Shown here: piece by piece, positions 41,966 to 55,484 of the stretch
How positions within the stretch are numbered: position 1 is the first letter of the stretch
How the letters are laid out: each line of letters starts with the position of its first letter
Assembly (NCBI GenBank): GCA_963781755.1
Contig: CAWAGZ010000002.1
Coordinates: forward strand, 83,325 to 147,324
Length of the DNA stretch: 64,000 bases
Source of the DNA: an uncultured Acidobacteriota bacterium
Lineage (GTDB): Bacteria; Acidobacteriota; Thermoanaerobaculia; Multivoradales; JAGPDF01
Reading direction: 5' to 3'
Position numbers and translations under genes: made by a program
Notes under the pieces: model-generated
What the model was told of the DNA's origin: nothing
The model's input: the letters and a program-made list of their open reading frames with translations, nothing else
The model's database searches: none

Positions 41966-42159
41966 ATCGCGCGATTCTCTCGCCGGCCGGCGCGCCGCTG
42001 TCAAGCGATCCGGGGCCGGGCGCCCACGATTCCACGATTTCGCCACATTCACCGGCCGGATCTCCTCGCGGCGACCACCCGGCCCGCCCGCCGACACGCT
42101 CGAATGCCCGCGAGGTGACGAGGCGGAGCGGGCGGCGGCCCGCAGAAAGGAGCGACACG

Positions 42160-44280
42160 ATGTGGCCCGGTAGAAGGGAGGAGAAGCGGAGGATCCGGCG
42201 CGCGCTGATCGCGGCCCTGGCTTCGCTGGCGGCGGGGATCGCTCTCGGGCAACCATTGCAGGATTCCGGAGCCGACGGCTCGGCCGCCCGGCTGGAGCGC
42301 CCCGGCGACCTGGGCGGCGCCGGGCTGGTCGTACGCGGAGCCGGCGCGGGGCCCGACGAGGTCGGCGGCTGGCAACCCGCTCCCACGGTCGCGACCACGA
42401 TCGCGATCACCGTCACCGGCATCGTGGCGCGGGCACGGGTCGACCAGAGTTTCGACAATCCGTCCGACCAGCTCGTCGAGGCGGTCTACGTCTTCCCGCT
42501 GCCCGAAGGGGCCGCGATCGACCGGCTCGAGCTCGAGGCCGGCGGCCGGCGCATCGTCGGCCGCGTGCGCGAGCGCCAAGAGGCGCGGCGGGCCTACGAG
42601 GCCGCCAAGCAGCAGGGCCGGCGCGCCTCCCTGCTCGAGCAAGCGCGCCCCGACCTGTTCACGGTCGCGGTGGCCGGGGTCGCTCCCCACGAGCGGGTCA
42701 CGGTGCATCTCGAGTACCAGGATCTGGTGCGCTACGACCTCGGGGTCTTCCGCCTTCGCTTCCCGCTGGTCGCCGCGCCGCGCTACACGCCGCCCGCCGC
42801 CGCGCCGGCGATGGCGACGTCCGGCTTCGCGATCCTCCGCACCCCCGCCGGAGCTCCCGCGGTCGCCCTCGATCCGCCTCCGCCCGCCGCGCCGATCGTC
42901 GTCCCGGCTTCGGCCGCCGCGGCGAGGGCGTTGCGGCCGGTCCGCCTGACGGTCGACCTGCGCGCCGGCATCCCTCTGGCCGCGGTCGAGAGCCCGACCC
43001 ACTCGCTCACCGTCCACCGGGTCGAGAAGGGCCTGTGGCGGGCCGAGCTCGCCGACGGCCAGGTCGCCGCCGATCGCGACTTCGAGCTGGTCTGGCATCC
43101 ACGGCGGGAGGCGGCCCCTACCCTGGCGCGCTTCGAGCAGGACGTCGGCGGCGAGCGTTACGCCGCGCTGCTCTTCCTGCCGCCGGCGCCGGAGGCTTCC
43201 GCCGTCCCGATCCCGCGCGATCTGGTCGTCGTGCTCGACACCTCGGGCTCGATGGGCGGCGCCTCGATCGAGCAGGCCAAGCGCGCGGTGCGCGCCGCGC
43301 TCTCGCGCCTCGGCCCGGCCGACCGCTTCGACGTCATCCGCTTCGCCGACGCCGCCGAGGCGCTCTTCCCGGCCAGCGTCGAGGCCGGCCCGCGCTCGCT
43401 CGGCCAAGCCTACGCCTGGGTGGACGGGCTCGCGGCGAACGGCGGCACGAACATGCTGCCGGCACTCCGGATGGCGCTCGACGACCCGCCCGACCCGACG
43501 GTCGTGCGTCAGGTGCTCTTCGTGACCGACGGTTGCGTCGGCAACGAGGAGGAGCTCTTCTCGTACCTCGAGCAGCACCTCGGCCGCAGTCGGCTGTTCA
43601 CCGTCGGCATCGGCTCGGCGCCCAACTCCTGGTTCATGACCCGCGCCGCCGAGCTGGGCCGCGGCACGCACACGTTCATCGGCAGCGTCGCCGAGGTCGA
43701 GGACAAGATGGCCGGGCTGTTCGCCAAGCTCGAGCGCCCCGTGCTCGCCGACCTCGACGTCGTCTGGGACGACCCTTCGGCGGAGAGCTACCCGCAACTG
43801 CCCCCCGACCTCTACGTCGGCGAGCCGCTGCTGCTGGTCGCCCGGCTGGAGCGGCCGGACGCGGCGGTCCAGATTACGGGGCGGCGCACGGACGCGCCCT
43901 TCGAGGAGACCCTCGCACCGACGACGCCGCGCCCGGCTTCCGGGTTGGCGCGCCTGTGGGCGCGGCGCAAGATCGACGCGCTCGAGGCGGCGATGCGCGC
44001 CCCCGGCGCGGACCGGGACGCGCTGCGCGGCCAGATCGTGGACTTGGCGCTGGCCCACGGGCTGGCCAGCCGGTACACCAGCTTCGTCGCGGTCGAGGAG
44101 CGCCCCTCGGTGGCGCCGGGCACGCCCCAGGCCACCCGCGAGGTGGCGAACCTGCTGCCCGCGGGCTGGAACGGCGCCGAGCTGCCGCAGGGCGGCACCC
44201 GCGCTCCGCTCGAGCTGGCCGCGGCATTCCTGCTCGCGCTCGCCGGTTTCGTCCTGCGCCGGGCGGGGTCCGCGCCGTGA
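42160..44280 (+). CDS. VIT plus VWA domain sortase target protein with LPQGG sorting signal
   Basis: RBS AAAGGAG; VIT (EAVYVFPLPEGAAI), VWA (LDTSGSM, FVTDG); C-terminus LPQGGT plus hydrophobic helix plus RR. Confidence 0.9.
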   Translation: MWPGRREEKRRIRRALIAALASLAAGIALGQPLQDSGADGSAARLERPGDLGGAGLVVRGAGAGPDEVGGWQPAPTVATTIAITVTGIVARARVDQSFDNPSDQLVEAVYVFPLPEGAAIDRLELEAGGRRIVGRVRERQEARRAYEAAKQQGRRASLLEQARPDLFTVAVAGVAPHERVTVHLEYQDLVRYDLGVFRLRFPLVAAPRYTPPAAAPAMATSGFAILRTPAGAPAVALDPPPPAAPIVVPASAAAARALRPVRLTVDLRAGIPLAAVESPTHSLTVHRVEKGLWRAELADGQVAADRDFELVWHPRREAAPTLARFEQDVGGERYAALLFLPPAPEASAVPIPRDLVVVLDTSGSMGGASIEQAKRAVRAALSRLGPADRFDVIRFADAAEALFPASVEAGPRSLGQAYAWVDGLAANGGTNMLPALRMALDDPPDPTVVRQVLFVTDGCVGNEEELFSYLEQHLGRSRLFTVGIGSAPNSWFMTRAAELGRGTHTFIGSVAEVEDKMAGLFAKLERPVLADLDVVWDDPSAESYPQLPPDLYVGEPLLLVARLERPDAAVQITGRRTDAPFEETLAPTTPRPASGLARLWARRKIDALEAAMRAPGADRDALRGQIVDLALAHGLASRYTSFVAVEERPSVAPGTPQATREVANLLPAGWNGAELPQGGTRAPLELAAAFLLALAGFVLRRAGSAP

Positions 44281-44851
44281 CCTCGAAGCTCGGCGCCGTG
44301 CTCCTGGCCGCCGCGGTGGCGCTGGGCGGCGACGGCCTCTGGCTCCACGCCAAGGCCGTCCTCGCCCAGGCGCTTCTGGCCCACGCCTGGAGCGCCGCCG
44401 AGGCGGGCGACGCCCGGCCGCGTCCCTGGCCGTGGGCCGACACCTGGCCGGTGGCCCGGCTCGAGGTGCCGCGGCTGGGGATCGAGGAGATCGTGCTGGC
44501 GGGCGCCTCGGGGCGGGTCCTCGCCTTCGCCCCCGGCCACGTGGACGGCACGCCGCTGCCGGGGGAGCCCGGCAACGCGATCCTCGCCGGCCACCGAGAC
44601 ACCACCTTTCGCTTCCTCGAGCGGCTGCGACCGGGCGACCGGATCCGCACCCGGCTGCCCGACGGCCGCGAGACGCTCTTCACGGTGGACTCGACCCGCG
44701 TCCAGGACGCCGCCGACCCCTGGGCCTTCGACGGCCCCGGAGGGCGACGACCGTGCTGACGCTGGCCACCTGCTGGCCGTTCGACTCCCCCGTCCCGGGC
44801 GGCCGCCTGCGCTTCGTCGTGCGCGCCGTGGAGGCCGACCCGAAGCGCTGA
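44277..44851 (+). CDS. Class GN (dedicated, Gram-negative-type) sortase; apparent frameshift near 44743
   Basis: KAVLAQALL, PWPWADTWPVARL and AGHRDT in one frame; LTLATCWPF...RLRFVV in the next frame; His/Cys/Arg triad present. Confidence 0.88.
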
Positions 44852-44864
44852 GAGCGCCACCCGC

Positions 44865-44908
44865 CGCACCGCTGTGCGCTTCCACGCCGGCACGCGGTCC
44901 CCCAGGAT
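44865..44908 (+). promoter_or_regulatory. Palindrome CGCAC-N4-GTGCG copy 1 with downstream CAGGAT
   Basis: CGCACCGCTGTGCGCTTCC at 44865; hexamer starts 29 nt after the start of GTGCG. Confidence 0.6.
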
Positions 44909-44945
44909 CGAAGGCATCGAGACCGAACGATCCTGGAGAACCGCC

Positions 44946-45728
44946 ATGACACGACCCGTCCCTCGCACCGACCCCGATCCTCCCGTCCGCAGCGCCGCCG
45001 CGGCGCTGCTGGTCGCCGCGCTCCTGACCGGCTGCGCCGGCGTGCTCGGTGGCACCCGTCCCTTCGTGTTGCCGCTCGAAGCGCCCGCCGGCAGCGTCCC
45101 GCGCGCCGCCGTCTCCCTGGCCGGCTTCGAGGTCGCCCCGGGCGCCAACGAGGTCAAGGCGACCGGCACCTTTCCGCTCGGCGCCTTCGGCGAAGACGAC
45201 CGGCGCGTCGTCGAGCGCTCCTTTCGCGACACGCTGGCGCGGGCGAGCTGGCCCGAAGCGCCGCCGCCCGTCCGTGACTGGAAGCTCCACGTCCTGCTGC
45301 GCCGGCACCTGGTCGCCCACAGCACCAGCTCGGGCGGGGTCCTCGCCTGCGTCGGCTGGGCGCTGGTCTCGGGAGACGGCCGCGTCGTCTTCAGCGAGCA
45401 GTTCTACGCCTCGGTCGCCGGCGCCGGCTCCGGGCGGCGCAACGGCGAGAAGGTCCCGGACAACCTGGGTCGGGTCAAGGACGCTCTCCACCGAGCGATC
45501 GTGGAGCGGATCGTCGCGACCAGCGTGCGGCTGGCGTCGGAGCCCGACGGCGCGCCGCGACCGCCCGCCGTCGCGCACACCTACGAGACGATCCAGGAGG
45601 CCGCGCAACCCCTGCCCACCCGTCTGACCACGATCATGGGGATCCCGCCCATCGCCCATCGCCGGGTCGACTGGACCCTGATCGACCCGCAGCCCCCCAT
45701 CGACTGGGCCCGGCGGCTCCGGCGCTGA
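44946..45728 (+). CDS. Hypothetical lipoprotein
   Basis: RBS GGAG; lipobox ALLTG-C. Confidence 0.75.
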   Translation: MTRPVPRTDPDPPVRSAAAALLVAALLTGCAGVLGGTRPFVLPLEAPAGSVPRAAVSLAGFEVAPGANEVKATGTFPLGAFGEDDRRVVERSFRDTLARASWPEAPPPVRDWKLHVLLRRHLVAHSTSSGGVLACVGWALVSGDGRVVFSEQFYASVAGAGSGRRNGEKVPDNLGRVKDALHRAIVERIVATSVRLASEPDGAPRPPAVAHTYETIQEAAQPLPTRLTTIMGIPPIAHRRVDWTLIDPQPPIDWARRLRR

Positions 45729-45731
45729 TCC

Positions 45732-45776
45732 GCGCACGCCTGTGCGCTTCCGGCGGCGCGAAGTCCGCCCTAGCGT
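45732..45776 (+). promoter_or_regulatory. Palindrome GCGCAC-N4-GTGCGC copy 2 with downstream TAGCGT
   Basis: GCGCACGCCTGTGCGCTTCC; same spacing to the -10-like hexamer as copies 1 and 3. Confidence 0.65.
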
Positions 45777-45812
45777 GTCGTCGAACTGGAACGACCCGCT
45801 CCGGAGGACCGC

Positions 45813-47387
45813 GTGGAGAACCGAACCCTCTTCCCGATAGCCCGCACGCTTCGCGGACTCCGCATCGCGACGCTGCTGCTCGCCGGCGCGGGCGCCCTCG
45901 CGGCGCAAGAGCCCGGCTTCGACTGGGCGGCGCGGATCGGCGGCGCGGGCGCCGGGGACGTCGCCTGGGCCGCCGCCACCGATGCCGCCGGCAACGTCTA
46001 CGTCGCCGGCAGCTTCGGGGGCACCGTGGACTTCGACCCCGGCGCGGGAGTCCACGAGCTGACCGCGACCGTCGCCGATCCCTTCCTGGCCAGCTACGAC
46101 GCCGACGGCAACTTCCGCTGGGCCGACGCCTTCGTGGGGACCAACCTGAGCGACGAGGCCCGGGCGGTCGCGGTCGCCGGCGACGCGGTGATCGTCTGCG
46201 GCACCCACTCGAGCACGCTCGACATGGACCCGGGGCCGGGCTCGTTCCCGCTCGTCAACTCCAACCCCTCCACCTCGAACTTCTTCTGCGGCCGCTACTC
46301 CGCGGCCGACGGCGCGTTGGTCTGGGCGTTCTCGATCGGCGGCGCGGCGATCGAGCAGGCCTCGCGCGTCGCGCTCGCTCCCGGCGGCGATCTCGTCGTG
46401 GTCGGGATCTTCCAGAACACGGTCGATTTCGATCCCGGTCCGGGGAGCGCGGAGCTCACCGCCACGGTGGGCGCCGACGCCTTCTTCGCCCGCTACACCG
46501 CCGACGGGGATCTGGTCTGGGCGGAGTCCCTCCGCCAGCTCGCGACCGGCGGCTCGGGCTCCGACGAGATCGGAGGGATCGCGATCGATCCCTCGAACGG
46601 CTCGATCTACCTGGTCGGCACGCTCAGCGGCACGATGGACTTCGACCCCGGACCGGGCGAGCTCCTGCTGACCGCCTCCGGTACCGATCCCTTCCTCGCG
46701 CGCTACGACTCGGCAGGGGGCGTCCTGTGGGCCGAAGCGCTCCTCGGCTCCACCAACTCGAACCGGGCCACCGCCGCGGCGATCGGCGCCGCCGGCGAGC
46801 TCTACGTCGCCGGATTCGTCACCGGCGAGACCGATTTCGATCCCGATCCGGTCGCCACCGCGCTGCTCACCGGCCCCGGCGGCGCCGACCCCTTCCTGGC
46901 CCGCTACGAAGCGGACGGCACCTACGCCTGGGCCGGGGTGATCGGCAGCACCGGCACCGACTCCGTCGCGGACCTGCGTCGCTCGGCCGCCGGCGTGCTC
47001 ACTCTTCTGGGCGAGTACGGCGCCGAGTTCGACGCCGATCCCGGTCCGGGGACGTTCCCGCTGCCGGCGCCGATGGCCAACGTCAACGGCTTCCTGGCGC
47101 GCTACGACGCCTCCGGCGCCCTGCTCGCGGCCGGCGCCCTGCGCGAGCTCACCGGAGGCAGCAACACCGGCATCCACCCGCGCGCCCTCGACCTCGGTCC
47201 CGACCCCGGCGCGATCGCGGTCGGCTCGTTCACCTTCGAGGGCGACTTCGATCCGGGCCCGGGAGTCTTCCCGCTGACCTCCGCCGGGCTCGCCGACGCC
47301 TTCTTCCTGCGCGCCGACCCGACCCTGATCTTCGCCGACGGCTTCGAGTCCGGCGACCTCGCGCCCTGGAGCTCGGCCGTCCCCTGA
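45813..47387 (+). CDS. Secreted 7-repeat beta-propeller (SBBP-like) with C-terminal IFADGFESG tail
   Basis: Signal peptide; seven roughly 65-aa repeats with D[FMA]DP[GD]xx cores; ends IFADGFESGDLAPWSSAVP. Confidence 0.85.
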   Translation: MENRTLFPIARTLRGLRIATLLLAGAGALAAQEPGFDWAARIGGAGAGDVAWAAATDAAGNVYVAGSFGGTVDFDPGAGVHELTATVADPFLASYDADGNFRWADAFVGTNLSDEARAVAVAGDAVIVCGTHSSTLDMDPGPGSFPLVNSNPSTSNFFCGRYSAADGALVWAFSIGGAAIEQASRVALAPGGDLVVVGIFQNTVDFDPGPGSAELTATVGADAFFARYTADGDLVWAESLRQLATGGSGSDEIGGIAIDPSNGSIYLVGTLSGTMDFDPGPGELLLTASGTDPFLARYDSAGGVLWAEALLGSTNSNRATAAAIGAAGELYVAGFVTGETDFDPDPVATALLTGPGGADPFLARYEADGTYAWAGVIGSTGTDSVADLRRSAAGVLTLLGEYGAEFDADPGPGTFPLPAPMANVNGFLARYDASGALLAAGALRELTGGSNTGIHPRALDLGPDPGAIAVGSFTFEGDFDPGPGVFPLTSAGLADAFFLRADPTLIFADGFESGDLAPWSSAVP

Positions 47388-47403
47388 CCTGGAGACCTCG
47401 ATC

Positions 47404-48473
47404 ATGACTCCGATTCCTCGTGGCCTTTCCGCCCTCGCCCTCTCGGCAGCGATCGCAGGGGCCTCAGCTGCCCGCGCCGACATCTTCTGCGTCGAGACCG
47501 CGAGCCAGCTCGAGGGCGCCCTGATCGCCGCCGGACTCAACCACCAGGACGACGAGATCCGCATCCGCCCGGGCACGTACGTCGCGCCCCAGCCGGTCGG
47601 CTTCGACTACTCGCCGGGACTCGATGACGAGAACCGGGGGCTCGTGATCTCGGGAGGCTGGTCGCAGGGTTGCTCTCGACTATCGGGCCACGCGACGGAG
47701 ACGGTGCTCCAGGGCAGCGCCGACCTCCGTGCCTTGCTGCTCTTCGCCGGCTCCCAGCCGGAGCTCTTCACGATCCGGCTCCTCACCATCACCGGCGCGA
47801 CCAACGTCCCTGGCGTGGTGGTGATCTTCAGTGACACGGCCGCCGGATCGGGAGTGACGATCGACCGGGTCATCTTCCGGGACAACCAGTACACCGCTCT
47901 CTTCGTGTCGATGATCTGGACGCCGGTTCGCCTCACCGGCTGTCTCTTCCACCACAACGACATCGCCACCTCGTCGGGCGCCGCCGCGGTGATCCAGGCG
48001 ACCCACAACGACGTGGAAGTCTTCAACAACACCTTCACCGACAACACGGTCTCGGGCCTGGGTGTCGTGGCAGGGCTGCGCCTGGAGAGCAGCGACCCGC
48101 AGAACATGTACCTCGTCAACAACATCTTCTGGGGCAACGAGAACGTGGACGTGCTGGTTCCCGACAACACGCATCTCTTCTCGTACAACGACTACGGCGT
48201 CGCCGTGGGCGGCTTCCTGGGCTCGCAGAACCTGCAGGTCGACCCTCTCTTCCAGGACCCGGGCAGCGAGGACTACCGTCTCCGCTCCAATTCTCCCCTG
48301 ATCGACGCCGGCGACGACTCTGGATCCGGGTATCCAATACATCGACCTGCTGCGCACGCCGCGCCCGCGGGGGGCGAGCTGGGAGATCGGCGCCCTACGA
48401 GTTCTGGCCGCCGATCTTCGCCGATGGCTTCGAGAACGGGACCACGGGGCGTTGGAGCTCGACCGTTCCCTGA
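47404..48473 (+). CDS. Secreted right-handed beta-helix / choice-of-anchor-Q-like protein with IFADGFE tail; two apparent indels near the 3' end
   Basis: NNTFTDN, NNIFWGN, DPLF...DYRLRSNSPLIDAG. Frame-corrected end IDLLRTPRP...EIGAYEFWPPIFADGFENGTTGRWSSTVP, TGA at 48471-48473. Confidence 0.8.
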
Positions 48474-48488
48474 CCTGGAGGCCCCGAC

Positions 48489-49577
48489 ATGACCACCACC
48501 CTTCGTCGCCGACTTCCTGTTCCCGCCCTTCTCCTCCTGGCCTGGACCACCTCCCACGTGGCCCGCGCCGCGACCTTCTGCGTCGAGACCCGGGACCAGC
48601 TCGAGGGCGCCCTGATCGCGGCCGGGCTGAACCAGGAGAGCGACGAGATCCGGGTCCGTCCCGGCGTCTACCTGGCGCCGCAGCCCAACGGCTTCGACTA
48701 CCTCCCGACCGGCAACGCGATCCACTACTCCGTCACCCTCACGGGCGGTTGGTCGGCCTCGTGCACCCGGGCCACCCACGACGCCCGGCTCACCGTGCTG
48801 TTCGGGAACCTGAACGGTCCGGTGCTGCGCTTCCGCACCCCGGAGGGGACGATGCGGGTGCGCGACCTGACCCTGCAGGGCGGCTTCGTCGCCAGCGGCG
48901 TCCACGGCGCCGGCCTCCACATCGACCACACCAGCGGCTTCGGCCCGGCCGTGGAGATCGAGCGGGTGATCTTCCGCGACAACCAGGGCTACGCCGCGCT
49001 CTACGTCCAGACCAAGGGTGCGATGCTGCTCACCGGCAGCCTGTTCCACTCCAACCTGATCGACGGCACCGGCAGCGGCGCGGCCAACCTGATCAGCGAG
49101 AGCGTCAACGACCCCCGGATCACCAACAACACCTTCGCCGGCAACACGACCACGGGCTCGTCGCCGATCGGTGGGCTGCGATTGGACAACTCCGCGGCGG
49201 CCGACCCCGGCGCCAACGTCACCAACAACATCTTCTGGGGCAACGACCACTTCGACTTCCTGGTGATCGGGCACGCCGAGCCCTTCCAGTACAACGACCT
49301 GGGCAACGGCTCGGGCAGCTACACCGGGGCGAACAACACCTTCGTCGATCCGCTCTTCCTCGATCCGGCCGAGGACGACTACCGGCTGCGCTTCGACTCT
49401 CCGATGATCGACAGCGGCTCGAACACCGCCGCCTCGCTGCCCGACCTCGATCTGCTGGGCGTGGCACGGCCGCAGAACGGCACCTACGACCGGGGCGCCT
49501 ACGAGTACCGCCCCCCGATCTTCTCGGGCGACTTCGAGAGCGGCGACGCCTCGGCCTGGAGCGTGGTCCAGCCCTGA
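48489..49577 (+). CDS. Paralogous secreted beta-helix / choice-of-anchor-Q-like protein with IFSGDFESG tail
   Basis: N-terminus closely similar to the previous gene; DPLF...DYRLRFDSPMIDSG...DRGAYE; ends IFSGDFESGDASAWSVVQP. Confidence 0.85.
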   Translation: MTTTLRRRLPVPALLLLAWTTSHVARAATFCVETRDQLEGALIAAGLNQESDEIRVRPGVYLAPQPNGFDYLPTGNAIHYSVTLTGGWSASCTRATHDARLTVLFGNLNGPVLRFRTPEGTMRVRDLTLQGGFVASGVHGAGLHIDHTSGFGPAVEIERVIFRDNQGYAALYVQTKGAMLLTGSLFHSNLIDGTGSGAANLISESVNDPRITNNTFAGNTTTGSSPIGGLRLDNSAAADPGANVTNNIFWGNDHFDFLVIGHAEPFQYNDLGNGSGSYTGANNTFVDPLFLDPAEDDYRLRFDSPMIDSGSNTAASLPDLDLLGVARPQNGTYDRGAYEYRPPIFSGDFESGDASAWSVVQP

Positions 49578-49602
49578 CGCCCCGCGTTGCTAGGCTGGGC
49601 GG

Positions 49603-52600
49603 GTGATCCGCCGAGCGTCGGTCGTGGCGCTGGCCCTGGTCGCCGCGGCGGCCGCGGCCGAGCGGCTGCCGGTGCGCGCCTGGGGCGCCGCCGACGGCCT
49701 GGGGCACGACCACGTCCGCTGCGCGCTGCGCGACTCTCAGGGCTTCCTCTGGTTCGGTACGGCGCTCGGCGTCAGCCGCTTCGACGGCGAGCGCTTCCGG
49801 CGCTTCGGCGTCGCCGACGGCCTGCCCGGCGCCCGGGTCCACGCGCTGGCGCAGACCGCCGACGGCAGCCTCTGGGCGGCGACCGAGCGCGGCCTGGCGC
49901 GGTTGGCTCCGGCGCCGGTGGCCACGGCGCCGCGCTTCGAAAGCGTCCCGCTTCCCGACCGGCCGGAGGCGGTCGGCGTGCGCGCTCTGCTCGTGGACTC
50001 CGACGGCTCGCTGCTGGCCGGAACCGAGCGGGGGCTGGTGCGGGTGCGCTGGACCGGCACCGGCGAGATCGAGGCGGAGGCGGTCGAGCCCTGCGACGGC
50101 GTCCGGTTCGACGTCCGCGCCCTGACCCGCGACGCGCGCGGCAAGCTCTGGATCGGCGGCGCCGACGGACGGTTGGTGGGCGGATCCGGAGACGGTTGCC
50201 GGAGCCTCGAGCTGGCGGCTCCCGGCCAGTGGATCCGCGCCCTGGCGGTCGACCGGAGAGGCCGGCTCTGGATCGGGTCCGACGCCGGCCTCGCGCGACT
50301 CGACGATCCCGGCGCGGCGGGACCGGTCCGGCGCATCGGCCCGGCCGAAGGGGTCGCCGCGAACCGCGTGCGCTCGCTCCACGAGGATCCGGACGGAGTG
50401 CTCTGGATCGGAGCCGTCGGTGGCCTCTACCGCGGCGACGGCGAGCGCTTCGAGCGCTACACCGTCGCCGACGGCCTGCCCGACGAGACGGTCAACGGCT
50501 TCGCGCGCGATCGCAACGGCCGGCTCTGGCTGGCCACGGACAGCGCCGGCGCGGTGCGGCTGCTCGAGGACGGCTTCGTCAGTTACGACCGCGCCGACGG
50601 GCTCGGCCACCCTTCGGTCTCGAACCTGTTCGAGGACCGCGACGGAGCGCTGGTCGTCGGCGGCGAGGTCGGCGGGTGGATCTCGCGGCGCGCCGGCAGC
50701 CGCTTCGAGGGACTGCAGCCGAAGCTGCCGGCGGCGCTCGCGGCGCGGGTCGCGGGCTCGGTCACCTGGGCGCTCGAGGACCACGCCGGCGAATGGTGGC
50801 TGGCCACCGTCGGCGGGCTCGTCCGCTACGCGCGGCCGGCGCGCTTCGGCGACCTCGCCCGCACCGCGCCGCTCGCGGTGTGGGGAACCGGCCGCGGCCT
50901 GCCCGCCGACTGGTGCTATCGCCTGTTCGAGACCGGCTCGGGGGAGCTCTGGGTCGCCACCGACCGCGGCGACGACGGTGACACCCTGGCGCGCATCGCC
51001 GCCGACCGCCGTGGCGTCGAGCGCTTCGGTCCGGCCTCCGGCCTGCCCGGCCGTGGCGGCGCCTCGAGCTTCGCCGAGTCGCCGGACGGCGGCCTCTGGG
51101 TGGGCTGGAGCGACGGCTCGCTGCTGCGCTTCGAGGGTGGCCGATTCCGCCGGGTCGGCGGCCCCGACGGCTACCCGGTCCAGGACCTGCTGTCCGGCCC
51201 CGACGGTCTCTGGCTGGCCACGGGCGGCGCCGGCCTGGGCCGGCTGGGGCCGGACGGAGTGGACGGAGCGCGCAGCGGCGGCCCGGTCCCGGCCGGACCG
51301 CCGGAGCTCGCCCACGCCGATATCCGGGCCCTCGCCCGGGGTGCCGACGGCATTCTCTGGATCGCCACCACGGAGGGGGTCTTCCGCTGGCGCACCGGCG
51401 ACGAGCGCGCCCGCCGTTTCACCGGCGCCGAGGGGCTGGCCGGCCTCGAGGCGACCGCCGTCCACGTCGACCGGAGCGGAGCGGTCTGGGTCGGCACCTA
51501 CAACGGGCTGTCGCGCAGGAGCGGCGAGACGCGGCGCTCGGCGCCGCCGCCGACCCCGCTGTGGATCCGCTCGCTCGAGATCGACGGCGCGGTGGTGCCG
51601 GTGTCGCCGCTCGGCCAGGACCGACTGGGACCGCTGAGCCTCGGCGCCGGCCGTCACCGGCTGCGCATCGGCCTGCTCGGCCTGGCTTTCGGCCCGGGCG
51701 AGTCGCTGCGCGTGCGCTACCGGCTGGTCGGCCTCGACTCGACCTGGAGCGCCCCGGCGGAAGCCACCTCGCTGACCTTCGGCGGGATCGGCGCCGGCCG
51801 CTACCGGTTCGAGGCGGTGGCGGCGGGCGCCGGCTCCGCGGCGCGCCCCGCGGTCATCGAATGGCTCGTCCCGCCGCCCCTCTGGCAGCGCGGCTGGTTC
51901 CTCGGCCTGATCGCGCTGGCGGTCGCCGCGGCCGGAGTCGGCGGCCACCGTCTGCGGGTGGCGCGCCTGCTCGAGGTCGAGCGCGTCCGCAGCCGCATCG
52001 CGGGCGACCTGCACGACGATCTCTCGGCCAACCTGACCCGGATCTCCATCCTCTCCGAGGTCGCCCGGCGCGGCCTTCCCGGCGACGGCGCCGAGCGCGT
52101 CGCGCCGCTGCTGACCGAGATCGGCGAGGGCGCCCGCGACCTGCTCGACTCGACCCGCGACCTGGTCTGGGCGATCGACCCGCGCGAGGAGACGCTGGCC
52201 GCGCTCGTCGCGCGCCTGCGCTCCTTCCTCGCGGGCCTGCTCGACGCCACCGAAGTGGCGTGGCGGCTGACCACGAGCGGCGAGCCGGCCGCGGTCCATC
52301 TCGGACCCGAGGCGCGCCGCCATCTCCTGCTGCTGCTCAAGGAGGCGGTCCACAACGCGATCCGGCACGGCCGGCCGGGGCGTCTCGAAGTGCGCCTCGA
52401 CGCCGGCCCGGAGGGGCTGCACGCGACGATCGAGGACGACGGTCGCGGCTTCGACGCGGACGCGTTGCTCAGCTCGGGCGGGCTCGGGCGGGGCCTGCGC
52501 GGCATGGAGCAACGGGCGCGCGCCCTGGGCGGCCGCCTGCGGGTCGAATCCCGGCCCGGAGTGGGTACCTGTGTCCGGCTGGAAGCCGCGCTGCCGGTGA

Positions 52601-52656
52601 GGCGCACGGATGTGCGCTCCTTCTCGCGCCGCCGATCGGAGAGACTGGGACGATGA
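49603..52656 (+). CDS. Periplasmic beta-propeller (Reg_prop/Y_Y_Y) sensor histidine kinase, HisKA_3 type
   Basis: Repeated DxxGxLW blades; YRLVG...GRYRFEA; TM helix; RIAGDLHDDL, KEAVHNAIRH, DDGRG, GRGLRGM. Confidence 0.93.
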   Translation: MIRRASVVALALVAAAAAAERLPVRAWGAADGLGHDHVRCALRDSQGFLWFGTALGVSRFDGERFRRFGVADGLPGARVHALAQTADGSLWAATERGLARLAPAPVATAPRFESVPLPDRPEAVGVRALLVDSDGSLLAGTERGLVRVRWTGTGEIEAEAVEPCDGVRFDVRALTRDARGKLWIGGADGRLVGGSGDGCRSLELAAPGQWIRALAVDRRGRLWIGSDAGLARLDDPGAAGPVRRIGPAEGVAANRVRSLHEDPDGVLWIGAVGGLYRGDGERFERYTVADGLPDETVNGFARDRNGRLWLATDSAGAVRLLEDGFVSYDRADGLGHPSVSNLFEDRDGALVVGGEVGGWISRRAGSRFEGLQPKLPAALAARVAGSVTWALEDHAGEWWLATVGGLVRYARPARFGDLARTAPLAVWGTGRGLPADWCYRLFETGSGELWVATDRGDDGDTLARIAADRRGVERFGPASGLPGRGGASSFAESPDGGLWVGWSDGSLLRFEGGRFRRVGGPDGYPVQDLLSGPDGLWLATGGAGLGRLGPDGVDGARSGGPVPAGPPELAHADIRALARGADGILWIATTEGVFRWRTGDERARRFTGAEGLAGLEATAVHVDRSGAVWVGTYNGLSRRSGETRRSAPPPTPLWIRSLEIDGAVVPVSPLGQDRLGPLSLGAGRHRLRIGLLGLAFGPGESLRVRYRLVGLDSTWSAPAEATSLTFGGIGAGRYRFEAVAAGAGSAARPAVIEWLVPPPLWQRGWFLGLIALAVAAAGVGGHRLRVARLLEVERVRSRIAGDLHDDLSANLTRISILSEVARRGLPGDGAERVAPLLTEIGEGARDLLDSTRDLVWAIDPREETLAALVARLRSFLAGLLDATEVAWRLTTSGEPAAVHLGPEARRHLLLLLKEAVHNAIRHGRPGRLEVRLDAGPEGLHATIEDDGRGFDADALLSSGGLGRGLRGMEQRARALGGRLRVESRPGVGTCVRLEAALPVRRTDVRSFSRRRSERLGR
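52602..52646 (+). promoter_or_regulatory. Palindrome GCGCAC-N4-GTGCGC copy 3 with downstream GAGACT (internal promoter of the response regulator)
   Basis: GCGCACGGATGTGCGCTCC inside the kinase 3' end; hexamer at 52641-52646, 6 nt before ATG 52653. Confidence 0.6.
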
Positions 52657-53315
52657 ATCCGGAACCCTCCGCGGCGCGGCCCCTGGCCGTCGCCATCGTC
52701 GAGGACGACCGCGGCACGCGCGAGGGTCTGGCGATGCTCGCCGGCGGCACGCCGGGCTACCTCTGCGTCGGCAGTTGGGGTTCGGTCGAGGAGGCGCTGC
52801 ATGCCGCCGTGGCCTCGCCGCCGCTGGTCATCCTGCTCGACATCGACCTGCCGGGCGTGCCCGGATCGGAGGGGGTCGCGAAGCTGCGCGAGCGCTTCCC
52901 GGAAGCGACCGTGATCATGCTCACCGTCTACGACGGCGAAGACCAGGTCTTTCTCTCGATCCTGAACGGCGCCAGCGGTTACCTGCTCAAGAGCACGCCT
53001 CCGGCGCGGCTGCTCGAAGCGATCGGCGAGGCCGCCGCCGGCGGCGCGCCGATGACGCCGATCGTCGCCCAACGGGTGCTCGGAATGCTGCGCGGCGGCT
53101 CGCCGCCGCCGGCGCGCTCGAGAGTGGAGCTCACGGCGCCGCAACGACGGCTGCTCGAGCTGCTCGCCGACGGCCACGGCTATCGCGCGGCGGCGGCCGA
53201 GATGGGGATCAGCACCAACACCGTCCGCAATCACGTCCGCGCGGTCTACGACAAGCTCCACGTGCACTCGAAGAACGAGGCCGTCGCCCGCGCCCTGCGC
53301 GCCGGCCTGATTTGA
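52653..53315 (+). CDS. NarL/FixJ family response regulator
   Basis: IVEDD, LLDIDLPG, GYLLK, ISTNTVRNHVRAVYDKLHV. Confidence 0.95.
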   Translation: MNPEPSAARPLAVAIVEDDRGTREGLAMLAGGTPGYLCVGSWGSVEEALHAAVASPPLVILLDIDLPGVPGSEGVAKLRERFPEATVIMLTVYDGEDQVFLSILNGASGYLLKSTPPARLLEAIGEAAAGGAPMTPIVAQRVLGMLRGGSPPPARSRVELTAPQRRLLELLADGHGYRAAAAEMGISTNTVRNHVRAVYDKLHVHSKNEAVARALRAGLI

Positions 53316-53341
53316 GACGGCGTCGGGCGGCGCGGCCCAGG

Positions 53342-54281
53342 TGTGACTGCTCAATAGGTTGTTCACCCGGACTGCTGTGGCAGGCTGGCTTTGTCGAGAA
53401 GTCGGCCGACCACGGAGGCAGCCCGGATGAACCTGCATAGAAGAGCAAAGACTGGCCCTGAAAGTCGAGCGTTGCTGGCACGTCGGGTCTTGGAGGAGGC
53501 CTGGTCCATGGACCAGGCCTCGCGCGCGGCGGGGGTCAGCCGCCAGACCGCTCGCAAGTGGGTGAACCGCTTTGCCACAGAAGGGGAAGCGGGGCTGCAG
53601 GACCGCTCCTCGAGGCCCCGGCGCTCGCCCCGGCGGTTGGCCGCGGACCGTGCGCAGCTGCTCGTGGAGCTGCGGCGCAAACACCACTTGACCGCCCAGG
53701 CCCTGGCCGAGCTGACCGGGATCTCGCGGGCGACGGTGGGCCGGGTGCTGCGTCGGCACGGGCTTTCGCGGGCCCGGGACCTGGAGCCCAAGCCCGTGGT
53801 GCGGCGCTACGAGCGGGCGGCTCCGAGCGAGCTGATCCACCTCGACATCAAGAAGCTGGGCCGGATCCAAGGTGTGGGTCATCGCATCCACGGCGACGTG
53901 AGCATCCGTAGCCGGGGCATCGGCTAGGAGTTCGTTTACGCTGCCATCGACGACTTCAGCCGTCTGACCTATCTGGAGATCTTGCCCGACGAACGCGGAG
54001 CCACGGTGGCGGGCCTTCTGCGCCGGGCCCTGGCCCGGCACCGGGAGCGCGGCATCCAGGCCCGCTGCATCCTCAACGACAATGCCTCGGGCTAGATCTC
54101 CAGGGTCTTCGCCCGGCTGTGCACCGGGGAGAAACTTCGCCACCTGCGCACCAAGCTCTACACGCCCCGCACCAGCGGCAAGGCCGAGGGCGGCGTGCCT
54201 CGGGTTCCGCGGGGCGGCCTCGGAGGCTCGCGGACTTCTCGGCAGAGCCCGCCTGGAACGGCGGTCCGGGTGAAGAAACTG
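53342..54281 (+). mobile_element. Decayed IS481-family element
   Basis: Left end TGTGACTGCTCAATAGGTTGTTCACCCGGAC; partial inverted copy GTCCGGGTGAA at about 54264; transposase remnant inside. Confidence 0.75.
53427..54190 (+). pseudogene. IS481-family transposase pseudogene
   Basis: HTH (VSRQTARKWVNRF), LIHLDIKKLGRI, G*EFVYAAIDDFSR, DNASG*, YTPRTSGKAE then loss of similarity; two in-frame TAG stops. Confidence 0.9.
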
Positions 54282-54437
54282 CGGTGGCCGCCGGCGACCT
54301 GTCCTAAACCGAGCGGCGACGCTGTTGTGGTAGCTGGTACCCGTCGAGTCGTCTGACCCTGCTTCCGGCGAGAGCACGCAGGAAACCTGTGAAGCCCACG
54401 TCGGTCCTTGATGAAGGTCACAGCCTGGAGGTGAACC

Positions 54438-55484
54438 GTGTCACTGGACACCCGTCCTTCTCCTCATCGGGAAAGATCTGCCAAGCCAGGGCCTGACATC
54501 CATCCGGGCAGGAGCCTGCGCTTCACCTGGCTCGCACTCGCAATCGCCTCGTCGGTGGCTCTTCCGGCGTTGGCGGACGACGCAGGGTGCGTCTGGAAGA
54601 CGACCGACATCATCGACACGCGGATCGACATCGGCGCTCAGCAGGCGCTCTTCCACATGATGAGCTCCGGCCCGCCCGACAGCAAGATCGCGTCGGCGAT
54701 GATCGGGGCGGTCAAGGACGGAACGCTCGCGGGCATCCTGCTGCCCCCGCGCCAAGCCGTGGCGAAGAGGTCCGCCCGCATGGCGCCGCCGCGCGGCTAT
54801 TGGGAGCTGTTGGACGGTCACAGCTCCGTCTGTCTACTCGAGCCCGAAGGCGAGCCACCGATGCTCGTATACCGCGAAGGAATGGAGCGCGACGCGATCG
54901 TGGACGCTCTCGAGGATGCGTGGCCGCAGTGTGGATTGTCCACGCCGGATCCGCCGTGCGGCTACAGCGTCGACGCCTGGAAGCCGGACAGCGAATGCGA
55001 CAGCGACCAAGCTTGCGTGGACAAGGGGCTGGGCTGGAAGTGCCTGGATCACCGTTGCGTCGACTGCGAGACCAGCGCCGAGTGCCAGGCCGACGACCGT
55101 GGCAACGTCTGTACCGCCGACCATCGCTGCGTCTACTCGTTCGAGGGCGGGGACATCGGACCCGACGGAGGCTCGAAGGAGCCCGACTGCTGGTACGACG
55201 CCAACTGTCGCGAAGGGTGGACCTGCACCAATGGGCGTTGCATCCCACCCGACGCCCCTGAGCATCGATGCTACGAGCGAGCGCAGGCCGAGTATCGACA
55301 GGAAGACAAGAAGTGCGAGGACGACGAGGCACCGCGCTTGGTCGAGTGCGCGGCCGAGAACTGGTCCGATCCGGTACCGCTCGCCAAGTGCCTGCACGAC
55401 TCCTACGACGAGAAGACCGAGTGCAAGAAGGGCGCCTTCCGAAAGTTCGAAGAAGAGAAGAAGGATTGCTATGGCTCTTCGTAG
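54438..55484 (+). CDS. Secreted cysteine-rich protein
   Basis: Signal peptide ending ALPALA; Cx5C...Cx4C repeats (CDSDQAC, CETSAEC, CWYDANC); Cys-spaced helical C-terminus. Confidence 0.75.
   Translation: MSLDTRPSPHRERSAKPGPDIHPGRSLRFTWLALAIASSVALPALADDAGCVWKTTDIIDTRIDIGAQQALFHMMSSGPPDSKIASAMIGAVKDGTLAGILLPPRQAVAKRSARMAPPRGYWELLDGHSSVCLLEPEGEPPMLVYREGMERDAIVDALEDAWPQCGLSTPDPPCGYSVDAWKPDSECDSDQACVDKGLGWKCLDHRCVDCETSAECQADDRGNVCTADHRCVYSFEGGDIGPDGGSKEPDCWYDANCREGWTCTNGRCIPPDAPEHRCYERAQAEYRQEDKKCEDDEAPRLVECAAENWSDPVPLAKCLHDSYDEKTECKKGAFRKFEEEKKDCYGSS

Follow-up and report, generated by a model that had tools for sequence, protein, structure and literature searches.

What is the function of an inverted repeat that recurs around a two-component system and its neighbouring secreted proteins in an uncultured Acidobacteriota bacterium? 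The repeat, CGCAC-N4-GTGCG, lies in a 64,000-nucleotide stretch of the genome (C2:83325-147324; hereafter the window, always at its full length), beside genes for a sensor histidine kinase (49603-52656) and a NarL/FixJ-type response regulator of 220 residues (52653-53315). From sequence analysis we consider it likely that the repeat is the operator of this adjacent regulator, which as a phosphorylated dimer would activate three promoters, designated here P1, P2 and P3.

An exact search of the window for CGCAC-N4-GTGCG (CGCACNNNNGTGCG) returned three matches, starting at 44865, 45733 and 52603, against an expectation of 0.27. These are precisely the positions given in an earlier note on this DNA, and CT directly follows the repeat on its 3' side at 3/3 sites. 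Three or more copies of CGCACNNNNGTGCG were reached in 1 of 100 shuffles of the window, while a 17-mer allowing up to three mismatches matched 25 times in the window against 21.65 expected, so that looser versions of the repeat are not enriched. We additionally scanned the whole genome (15 contigs, 3,850,560 bases, 71% G+C). The symmetric core was found at 11 positions, and the asymmetric form CGCAC-N3-TGTGCGCT, which has T before GTGCG and CT after it, matched three times, namely at the three window sites, all on the + strand.

Site 1 (CCGCACCGCTGTGCGCTTCC; CGCAC-CGCT-GTGCG, then CTTCC; 44865..44878) lies 14 nt past the stop codon of a frameshifted sortase gene and before the gene for a 260-residue lipoprotein (44946-45728). 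Site 2 (GCGCACGCCTGTGCGCTTCC; CGCAC-GCCT-GTGCG, then CTTCC; 45733..45746) lies 4 nt past the lipoprotein stop codon and before an operon of three secreted proteins (45813..49577), and site 3 (GCGCACGGATGTGCGCTCC; CGCAC-GGAT-GTGCG, then CTCC; 52603..52616) starts 50 nt before the regulator ATG. The earlier proposal that the repeat stands upstream of the lipoprotein, the operon and the regulator therefore held at all three places, although site 3 is not intergenic in this assembly, since it falls inside the kinase frame. All genes described below, from 42115 to the transposase fragment that begins at 53391, are on the + strand, as are the three sites and the hexamers described below.

As previously noted, a hexamer of the form nAnnnT begins 29 nt from the start of GTGCG, and thus 38 nt from the start of the repeat, at each site: CAGGAT (44903-44908), TAGCGT (45771-45776) and GAGACT (52641..52646). 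The frequency of nAnnnT across the genome is 0.0195 per position. Counting the first base of the repeat as +0, it occurs at +38 at 3/3 sites of the locus (+ strand), compared to 1/19 of the strand readings that the core has elsewhere, and that single case lies inside a gene. On the predicted transcription starts, the repeat (+0 to +13), the -35 position (+15 to +20) and the -10-like hexamer (+38 to +43) would form a class II-like layout. The -35 position is degenerate, reading TTCCAC, TTCCGG and TCCTTC at sites 1 to 3, respectively. This degeneracy in the window's clade favours activation, because a poor -35 region would fit dependence on an activator. A sigma-54 promoter was considered and rejected, as the GG and GC elements, read by eye, are off by one in their spacing and the first G is a C.

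Transcription from P1 would start near 44915, so that a leader of some 30 nt containing GGAGA would precede the lipoprotein ATG, and transcription from P2 near 45783, with GGAGGA before the GTG at 45813. The predicted start of P3 is the A of the regulator ATG itself, so that the mRNA would be leaderless. If transcription does begin at this ATG, the centre of the repeat at site 3 falls at -43.5, in agreement with the position near -43 suggested earlier. The hexamer GAGACT of site 3 ends 6 nt before the ATG and lies within ATCGGAGAGACT, a stretch conserved in two close orthologues. The window clade also carries GGAG 11 nt before the regulator ATG, and this GGAG, likewise inside ATCGGAGAGACT, could be used as a ribosome-binding site on read-through mRNA.

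We then asked what kind of regulator might recognize the repeat. The product of 52653-53315 matches Response_reg (E 1.2e-16) and GerE (E 6.4e-11), and the kinase matches HisKA_3 (E 4.2e-11) and HATPase_c (E 2e-15) in addition to carrying Reg_prop repeats and a Y_Y_Y domain. A receiver joined to a GerE/LuxR helix-turn-helix, with a HisKA_3 kinase gene adjoining, places the regulator in the NarL/FixJ group, and its closest solved relatives are NarL (E 1.1e-25), DevR, VraR and DesR. It scores below every NCBIfam equivalog cut-off, reaching 110 bits on the NarL model NF007935, for which 250 are required, and falling short likewise for MctR, MadR and NarP. The receiver and helix-turn-helix reside in a protein separate from the sensor kinase, which sets the system apart from Bacteroides-type hybrids. 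The subfamily has a single member in the genome, where the NarL-type protein next in similarity is 28% identical, and a helix signature of the subfamily, NTVRxYxRxVYDKLHVHSKSEAV, is very conserved. To judge by its domain architecture, the propeller kinase may sense an extracellular ligand.

To see how the repeat behaves in related cassettes, we examined 60 relatives. Kinase orthologues were found in two close relatives, G022 and G009 (58% identity each), and in the more distant G024 (43%), while a homologue of the lipoprotein was found among the 60 only in G024. The gene order in G022 (locus L023) is SBBP, beta-helix, kinase, regulator, and here the repeat occurs before the SBBP gene, between divergent genes, again between kinase and regulator, and a third time downstream of the regulator, ahead of a gene for a secreted 499-residue protein with Chlam_PMP-type repeats. 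The order in G009 (locus L024) is beta-helix, kinase, regulator, beta-helix, and repeats precede both beta-helix genes, one copy having one mismatch, and occupy the kinase-regulator gap. G024 has a variant, CGCAY-GAAG-ATGCG, before the regulator (L026, contig 11) and before the unlinked lipoprotein orthologue (L025, contig 9). Hexamers stand at +37 or +38 in the orthologous cassettes (TACCGT, TAGGTT, CAGGAT, TAGCCT, GAGACT), and the CAGGAT of site 1 recurs at the same offset in L024; the exception is L026, where the nearest -10-like hexamer, TAAGTC at +39, lacks the final T.

When G022, G009 and G024 were scanned whole, the pattern matched 30 times, and low coding periodicity together with promoter geometry was seen only beside these systems. 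The lipoprotein orthologue of G024 is one further credible location beyond the copies at the two-component systems, and the remaining matches look like coding sequence. Contig 9 of G024 (C9:94975-95737; L153, L156) also carries a second, paralogous pair of propeller kinase and regulator, whose own dyad variant, CGCATCGGCRTGCG, occurs both where kinase and regulator meet and past the regulator; paralogous systems within this genome thus seem to keep distinguishable operators.

We extended the comparison to a wider family: with the regulator as query, genome records supplied 33 loci and metagenome contigs another 80. Homologues that are at least 45% identical have 49 distinct upstream regions, and an exact CGCAY-N4-RTGCG begins at -65 to -40 relative to the predicted start codon in 25 of these, or in 28 when one mismatch is allowed. 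The expected count in that interval is 0.08, based on 63 places in the 1,005,057 nt of fetched loci. Upstream of homologues below 45% identity, the repeat was absent from this interval in all 32 regions. In 22 of the 28 family promoters the first base of the repeat falls between -49 and -52, and aligning all 28 on the repeat gave the consensus CCGCATG-NN-CATGCG-GTTG, followed at +38 to +43 by TAAnAT (T, A, A, n, A and T; counts of 17, 18, 19, -, 16 and 19 of 28, respectively). The gap between the -10-like element and the start codon is 6 or 7 nt in 19/28, compared to 6 nt in the window. This layout fits a sigma-70-like promoter, with TTG, a 17-nt spacer and a -10 element, that places +1 on the start codon, and the regulator mRNA is accordingly predicted to be probably leaderless across the family. 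On this predicted start, the family repeat spans about -51 to -38 with its centre near -44, and window site 3 spans -50 to -37. An in-silico survey had predicted leaderless genes in 3/3 Acidobacteria genomes, where on average they make up 13.3% of genes (PMC3160421, its Table 2).

The repeat accompanies the regulator gene across Acidobacteriota classes and also in metagenome-assembled genomes (MAGs) labelled Planctomycetota and Binatia, and the kinases beside distant family members have the same Reg_prop, Y_Y_Y and HisKA_3 build. Extra repeats in the family loci precede genes for secreted proteins with signal peptides, some of them with CBM20/48 and Calx-beta domains. This conservation of the repeat with the regulator gene amounts to phylogenetic footprinting, by which the putative operator is well supported. 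As a sequence feature, a predicted operator upstream of its own gene also marks the regulator as one that would regulate itself.

NarL/FixJ regulators bind inverted repeats as dimers. The adjacent regulator is the most economical candidate for the protein that binds the repeat, and it is favoured because of the dyad symmetry, the half-site centres about 9-10 bp apart, the co-inheritance with the regulator gene and the confinement to its neighbourhood. We therefore propose a circuit in which the Reg_prop/Y_Y_Y kinase would phosphorylate the regulator, and the regulator dimer would bind CGCAC-N4-GTGCG at about -50 to -37, directly upstream of the poor -35 region. P1 would thereby be switched on to yield the lipoprotein and P2 to yield the three secreted propeller and beta-helix proteins, probably with read-through into the kinase gene, and P3 would be switched on to yield the regulator itself, probably from an mRNA beginning at the ATG. 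The outcome would be a self-amplifying local circuit over a cassette of secreted proteins. The kinase may in addition have a leaderless promoter of its own that is free of the repeat: a TAGGCT hexamer (49591..49596) stands 6 nt before its GTG in the window, and TAGGCT is likewise found 6-7 nt before the kinase start in the beta-helix-kinase gaps of L023 and L024, where no repeat occurs.

Several observations weigh against this interpretation. A consensus scan of 43000-55000 found no sigma-70-type promoter, a result that is expected for weak promoters, and a repeat that abuts the -35 element could also repress. In this assembly, site 3 lies within the last 18 codons of the kinase frame, whose TGA overlaps the regulator ATG. 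Within the family, 21 of the 49 homologues that are at least 45% identical lack the repeat in the interval when one mismatch is allowed, some having it further upstream or in a looser form, and the start codons were set by a rule of our own script, which took the in-frame start closest to where the alignment would place it. The family sequences are also often close kin, so that the counts overstate independence; the 28 comprise 27 distinct 60-nt regions, several of which differ by only a few bases. Lastly, we searched the recognition helix for a residue change that tracks CGCAC versus CGCAT operators and found no clean pattern.

With regard to site 3, the kinase frame of both close orthologues, read by eye, ends at a stop codon 5 nt before the repeat, and an indel at the kinase end of the window, whether real or an assembly error, is plausible because beta-helix gene 1 and the sortase gene also change frame. 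Together there are, within 8 kb, one frame change in the sortase gene and two in beta-helix gene 1, besides a kinase without the orthologues' stop. These changes, at 44277-44851, 48326-48400 and 52590-52656, reflect either assembly indel errors or decay of an accessory cassette.

The alternative that fares best retains both the regulator and the operator and reverses the sign, such that the bound regulator would block RNA polymerase and repress itself and the cassette until a signal arrives. The operator touches the -35 hexamer, and in the wider family the core promoter, in which 17 nt separate TTG from TAACAT or TAGGAT, looks as though it could work unaided. The poor -35 region of the window's clade, on the other hand, suits activation, repressor operators more often lie over the region from -35 to +1, and positive autoregulation is the common pattern in two-component systems. 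On balance we regard repression as unlikely.

Another possible binder of the repeat is some other transcription factor, or an alternative sigma factor with a recognition site around -35. The adjacency of regulator and repeat is circumstantial and leaves room for such a binder. However, the repeat travels with the regulator gene across classes and is gone in homologues below 45% identity, and it is confined to the cassette here and, for the credible copies of the three relatives scanned whole, to positions beside copies of this system (plus the lipoprotein orthologue). Its dyad symmetry moreover suits a dimeric helix-turn-helix protein better than a sigma factor. We accordingly hold another binder to be very unlikely.

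Least credible, and given very little weight, is a role in RNA, as a G+C-rich intercistronic hairpin that stops, pauses or protects transcripts or marks them for processing: all three window copies do follow a same-strand gene (14 nt and 4 nt past a stop codon and at the kinase end), and the arms can pair into a stem of 6 bp capped by a 4-nt loop, as they do in the predicted folds of sites 2 and 3, but folding is no better than in shuffles (z = +1.17, -0.43 and -0.45), the best fold of site 1 omits the repeat, and with no T-run 3' of the stem (tails CTTCCAC, CTTCCGG and CTCCTTC) 0/3 sites are among the terminator-like ones, which argues against intrinsic terminators. Conservation points the same way. 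The arm letters themselves are fixed across 28 family copies, beyond what mere pairing would need, and at the variable arm pair (T/A 19, C/A 4, C/G 3, T/G 2) the halves vary independently, C/A being unpaired. The L023 copy before the SBBP gene lies between divergent genes and so has no upstream gene for which it could be a 3' structure, and a hairpin leaves the fixed spacing to the -10-like hexamer and the start codon unexplained.

Returning to the operator reading, we determined how far beyond the locus such a regulon might reach. The earlier note had proposed a genome-wide scan for the motif and a test of its enrichment upstream of genes whose products end in an IFADGFE-type tail. The asymmetric form is specific, occurring only at the three sites, but no wider regulon emerged, and enrichment upstream of the tail genes as a class was not borne out: about 30 genes of the genome end in such a tail, and the 3 that lie behind the repeat belong to one operon. 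A genome-wide regulon was likewise rejected after relaxing the core to one mismatch, which gave 328 matches, 90 of them outside crude gene calls and none with a downstream CTTCC or the promoter geometry. Allowing two mismatches together with the hexamer yielded 907 candidates compared to 604 in the reversed genome, a level we regard as noise. Among the 60 relatives, the exact motif was found once each in 5 genomes, and the 13 genomes belonging to the same genus had no match. A looser 18-mer was matched in 32/61 genomes, mostly by single matches with CGCACC...GGTGCG; the two examples examined, in G006 and G051, had neither cassette genes nor the hexamer nearby and were dismissed as chance. The putative regulon is thus the local cassette, and weaker sites elsewhere are possible. 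The claim of a regulon under the adjacent NarL-type system is supported in a narrower form, as the geometry is kept in three related genomes and in the family and the genome has a single such regulator, but its reach is limited to the local cassette.

The cassette itself consists mainly of genes for exported proteins. The lipoprotein has a signal peptide and an LLTGC lipobox and no Pfam or NCBIfam family match; in a protein atlas it falls into clusters of hypothetical proteins only, and Lipoprotein_16, which is annotated on 12% of the members of one cluster, is no more than a lead. The operon behind site 2 encodes an SBBP beta-propeller repeat protein (45813-47387; domain match), beta-helix protein 1 (47404 to about 48474), which has two frame changes near 48330 and 48398, and beta-helix protein 2 (48489-49577), which matches a choice-of-anchor-Q domain, with gaps of 16 and 14 nt between the genes. 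All three end in a tail of about 20 residues, [ILV]F[AS]DGFE[ST]GD..W....P and then the stop codon, with no hydrophobic stretch after it (47325-47387, 48411-48474 and 49515-49577, in the same order). In a few proteins of the genome the tail motif lies internally or close to the N-terminus. For the tails of the three window proteins, neither NCBIfam nor Pfam models reported a match, and a literature search with the three tail peptide strings found no paper. The tail may serve in Thermoanaerobaculia as a hitherto undescribed tag for sorting, docking or secretion.

On its upstream side, the regulated cassette adjoins a pair of genes that is seen here in an acidobacterial MAG, a VIT/VWA 'marine sortase target' (42115-44280) and a class GN sortase. 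The former reaches 670 bits on the 'marine proteobacterial sortase target' profile (VIT and VWA), for which the cut-off is 552, and the sortase gene is split over two frames (44277 to about 44851) that match profile positions 2-137 and 150-174. Immediately downstream of the regulator gene is a 178-residue frame with a fragment of an IS481-type transposase (53391-53927). Because close versions of the cassette occur in 2 of the 60 relatives, with a diverged one in G024, and because the IS481 fragment adjoins it, the cassette appears to be an accessory, possibly mobile, locally wired unit, as these features suggest.

In type, the proposed circuit is textbook: a two-component system that regulates itself through a dyad operator. 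With NarX-NarL, DevR/DosR, VraR and DesR the present system shares a receiver and GerE/LuxR helix-turn-helix beside a HisKA_3 kinase. Its half-site, CGCAC/CGCATG, is unlike the NarL heptamer, and whereas NarX has a small periplasmic domain, the kinase here has a sensor of about 730 residues with Reg_prop and Y_Y_Y. In Bacillus subtilis, the gene for the kinase DegS is followed by that for the NarL-type regulator DegU, a self-activated promoter lies at the end of the kinase gene, and secreted proteins are among the targets. The gene order, a predicted regulator promoter at the kinase end and the secreted targets are shared with our locus, while the organism, sensor and operator are unrelated and the promoter here would yield a leaderless mRNA. 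LuxR and TraR provide a parallel in geometry, as these ligand-controlled helix-turn-helix proteins bind as dimers to a dyad of 18-20 bp whose centre is slightly upstream of -40 and which abuts or overlaps a weak -35, in a class II-like manner. Here control would be by phosphorylation, and the dyad, 14-16 bp long, would have its centre at about -43.5 to -44.5 relative to the predicted start.

Literature searches, which did not extend to supplements, found no study of this two-component system, its operator or the tail, and the regulator subfamily is unstudied. The nearest work is a preprint on BguR, described there as a one-component regulator of marine Bacteroidota with a GerE domain and a conserved motif upstream of its targets that was predicted by a comparison similar to ours (bioRxiv 10.64898/2026.01.10.698779). 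As far as described there, BguR and the hybrid two-component systems of Bacteroides have in common with the present locus a periplasmic tandem beta-propeller and Y_Y_Y sensor and adjacent genes for secreted or surface proteins; they differ in that a classical kinase and a separate regulator are found here. Among the cassette genes we found no SusC/D-type genes and no recognised glycan-degrading enzymes.

A bolder generalization, which we put forward tentatively and with somewhat less than even confidence, is that a module of about 54 nt, composed of CGCAYG-N2-CRTGCG, TTG, a 17-nt spacer, the -10 element, 6-7 nt and the start codon, accompanies the entire subfamily, the window being one instance of it. 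The regulator would then be leaderless, self-activated and uncoupled from its kinase, and the operator would tag neighbouring secreted-protein genes into portable local regulons. If true, this module would span several Acidobacteriota classes and MAGs labelled Planctomycetota and Binatia, in company with propeller/Y_Y_Y kinases.

Taken together, the new elements are an operator consensus drawn from the family as a whole and, for the regulator gene, a promoter that is probably leaderless. They provide a testable DNA-binding specificity and promoter layout for a widespread regulator subfamily of the Acidobacteriota, a phylum with very little experimental data on gene regulation, and the three sites and the family consensus are directly usable for regulon prediction in MAGs, gel shifts and reporter fusions. 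In addition, the operator would mark those neighbouring secreted proteins that answer to a propeller/Y_Y_Y sensor, a type linked to glycan sensing in Bacteroidota.

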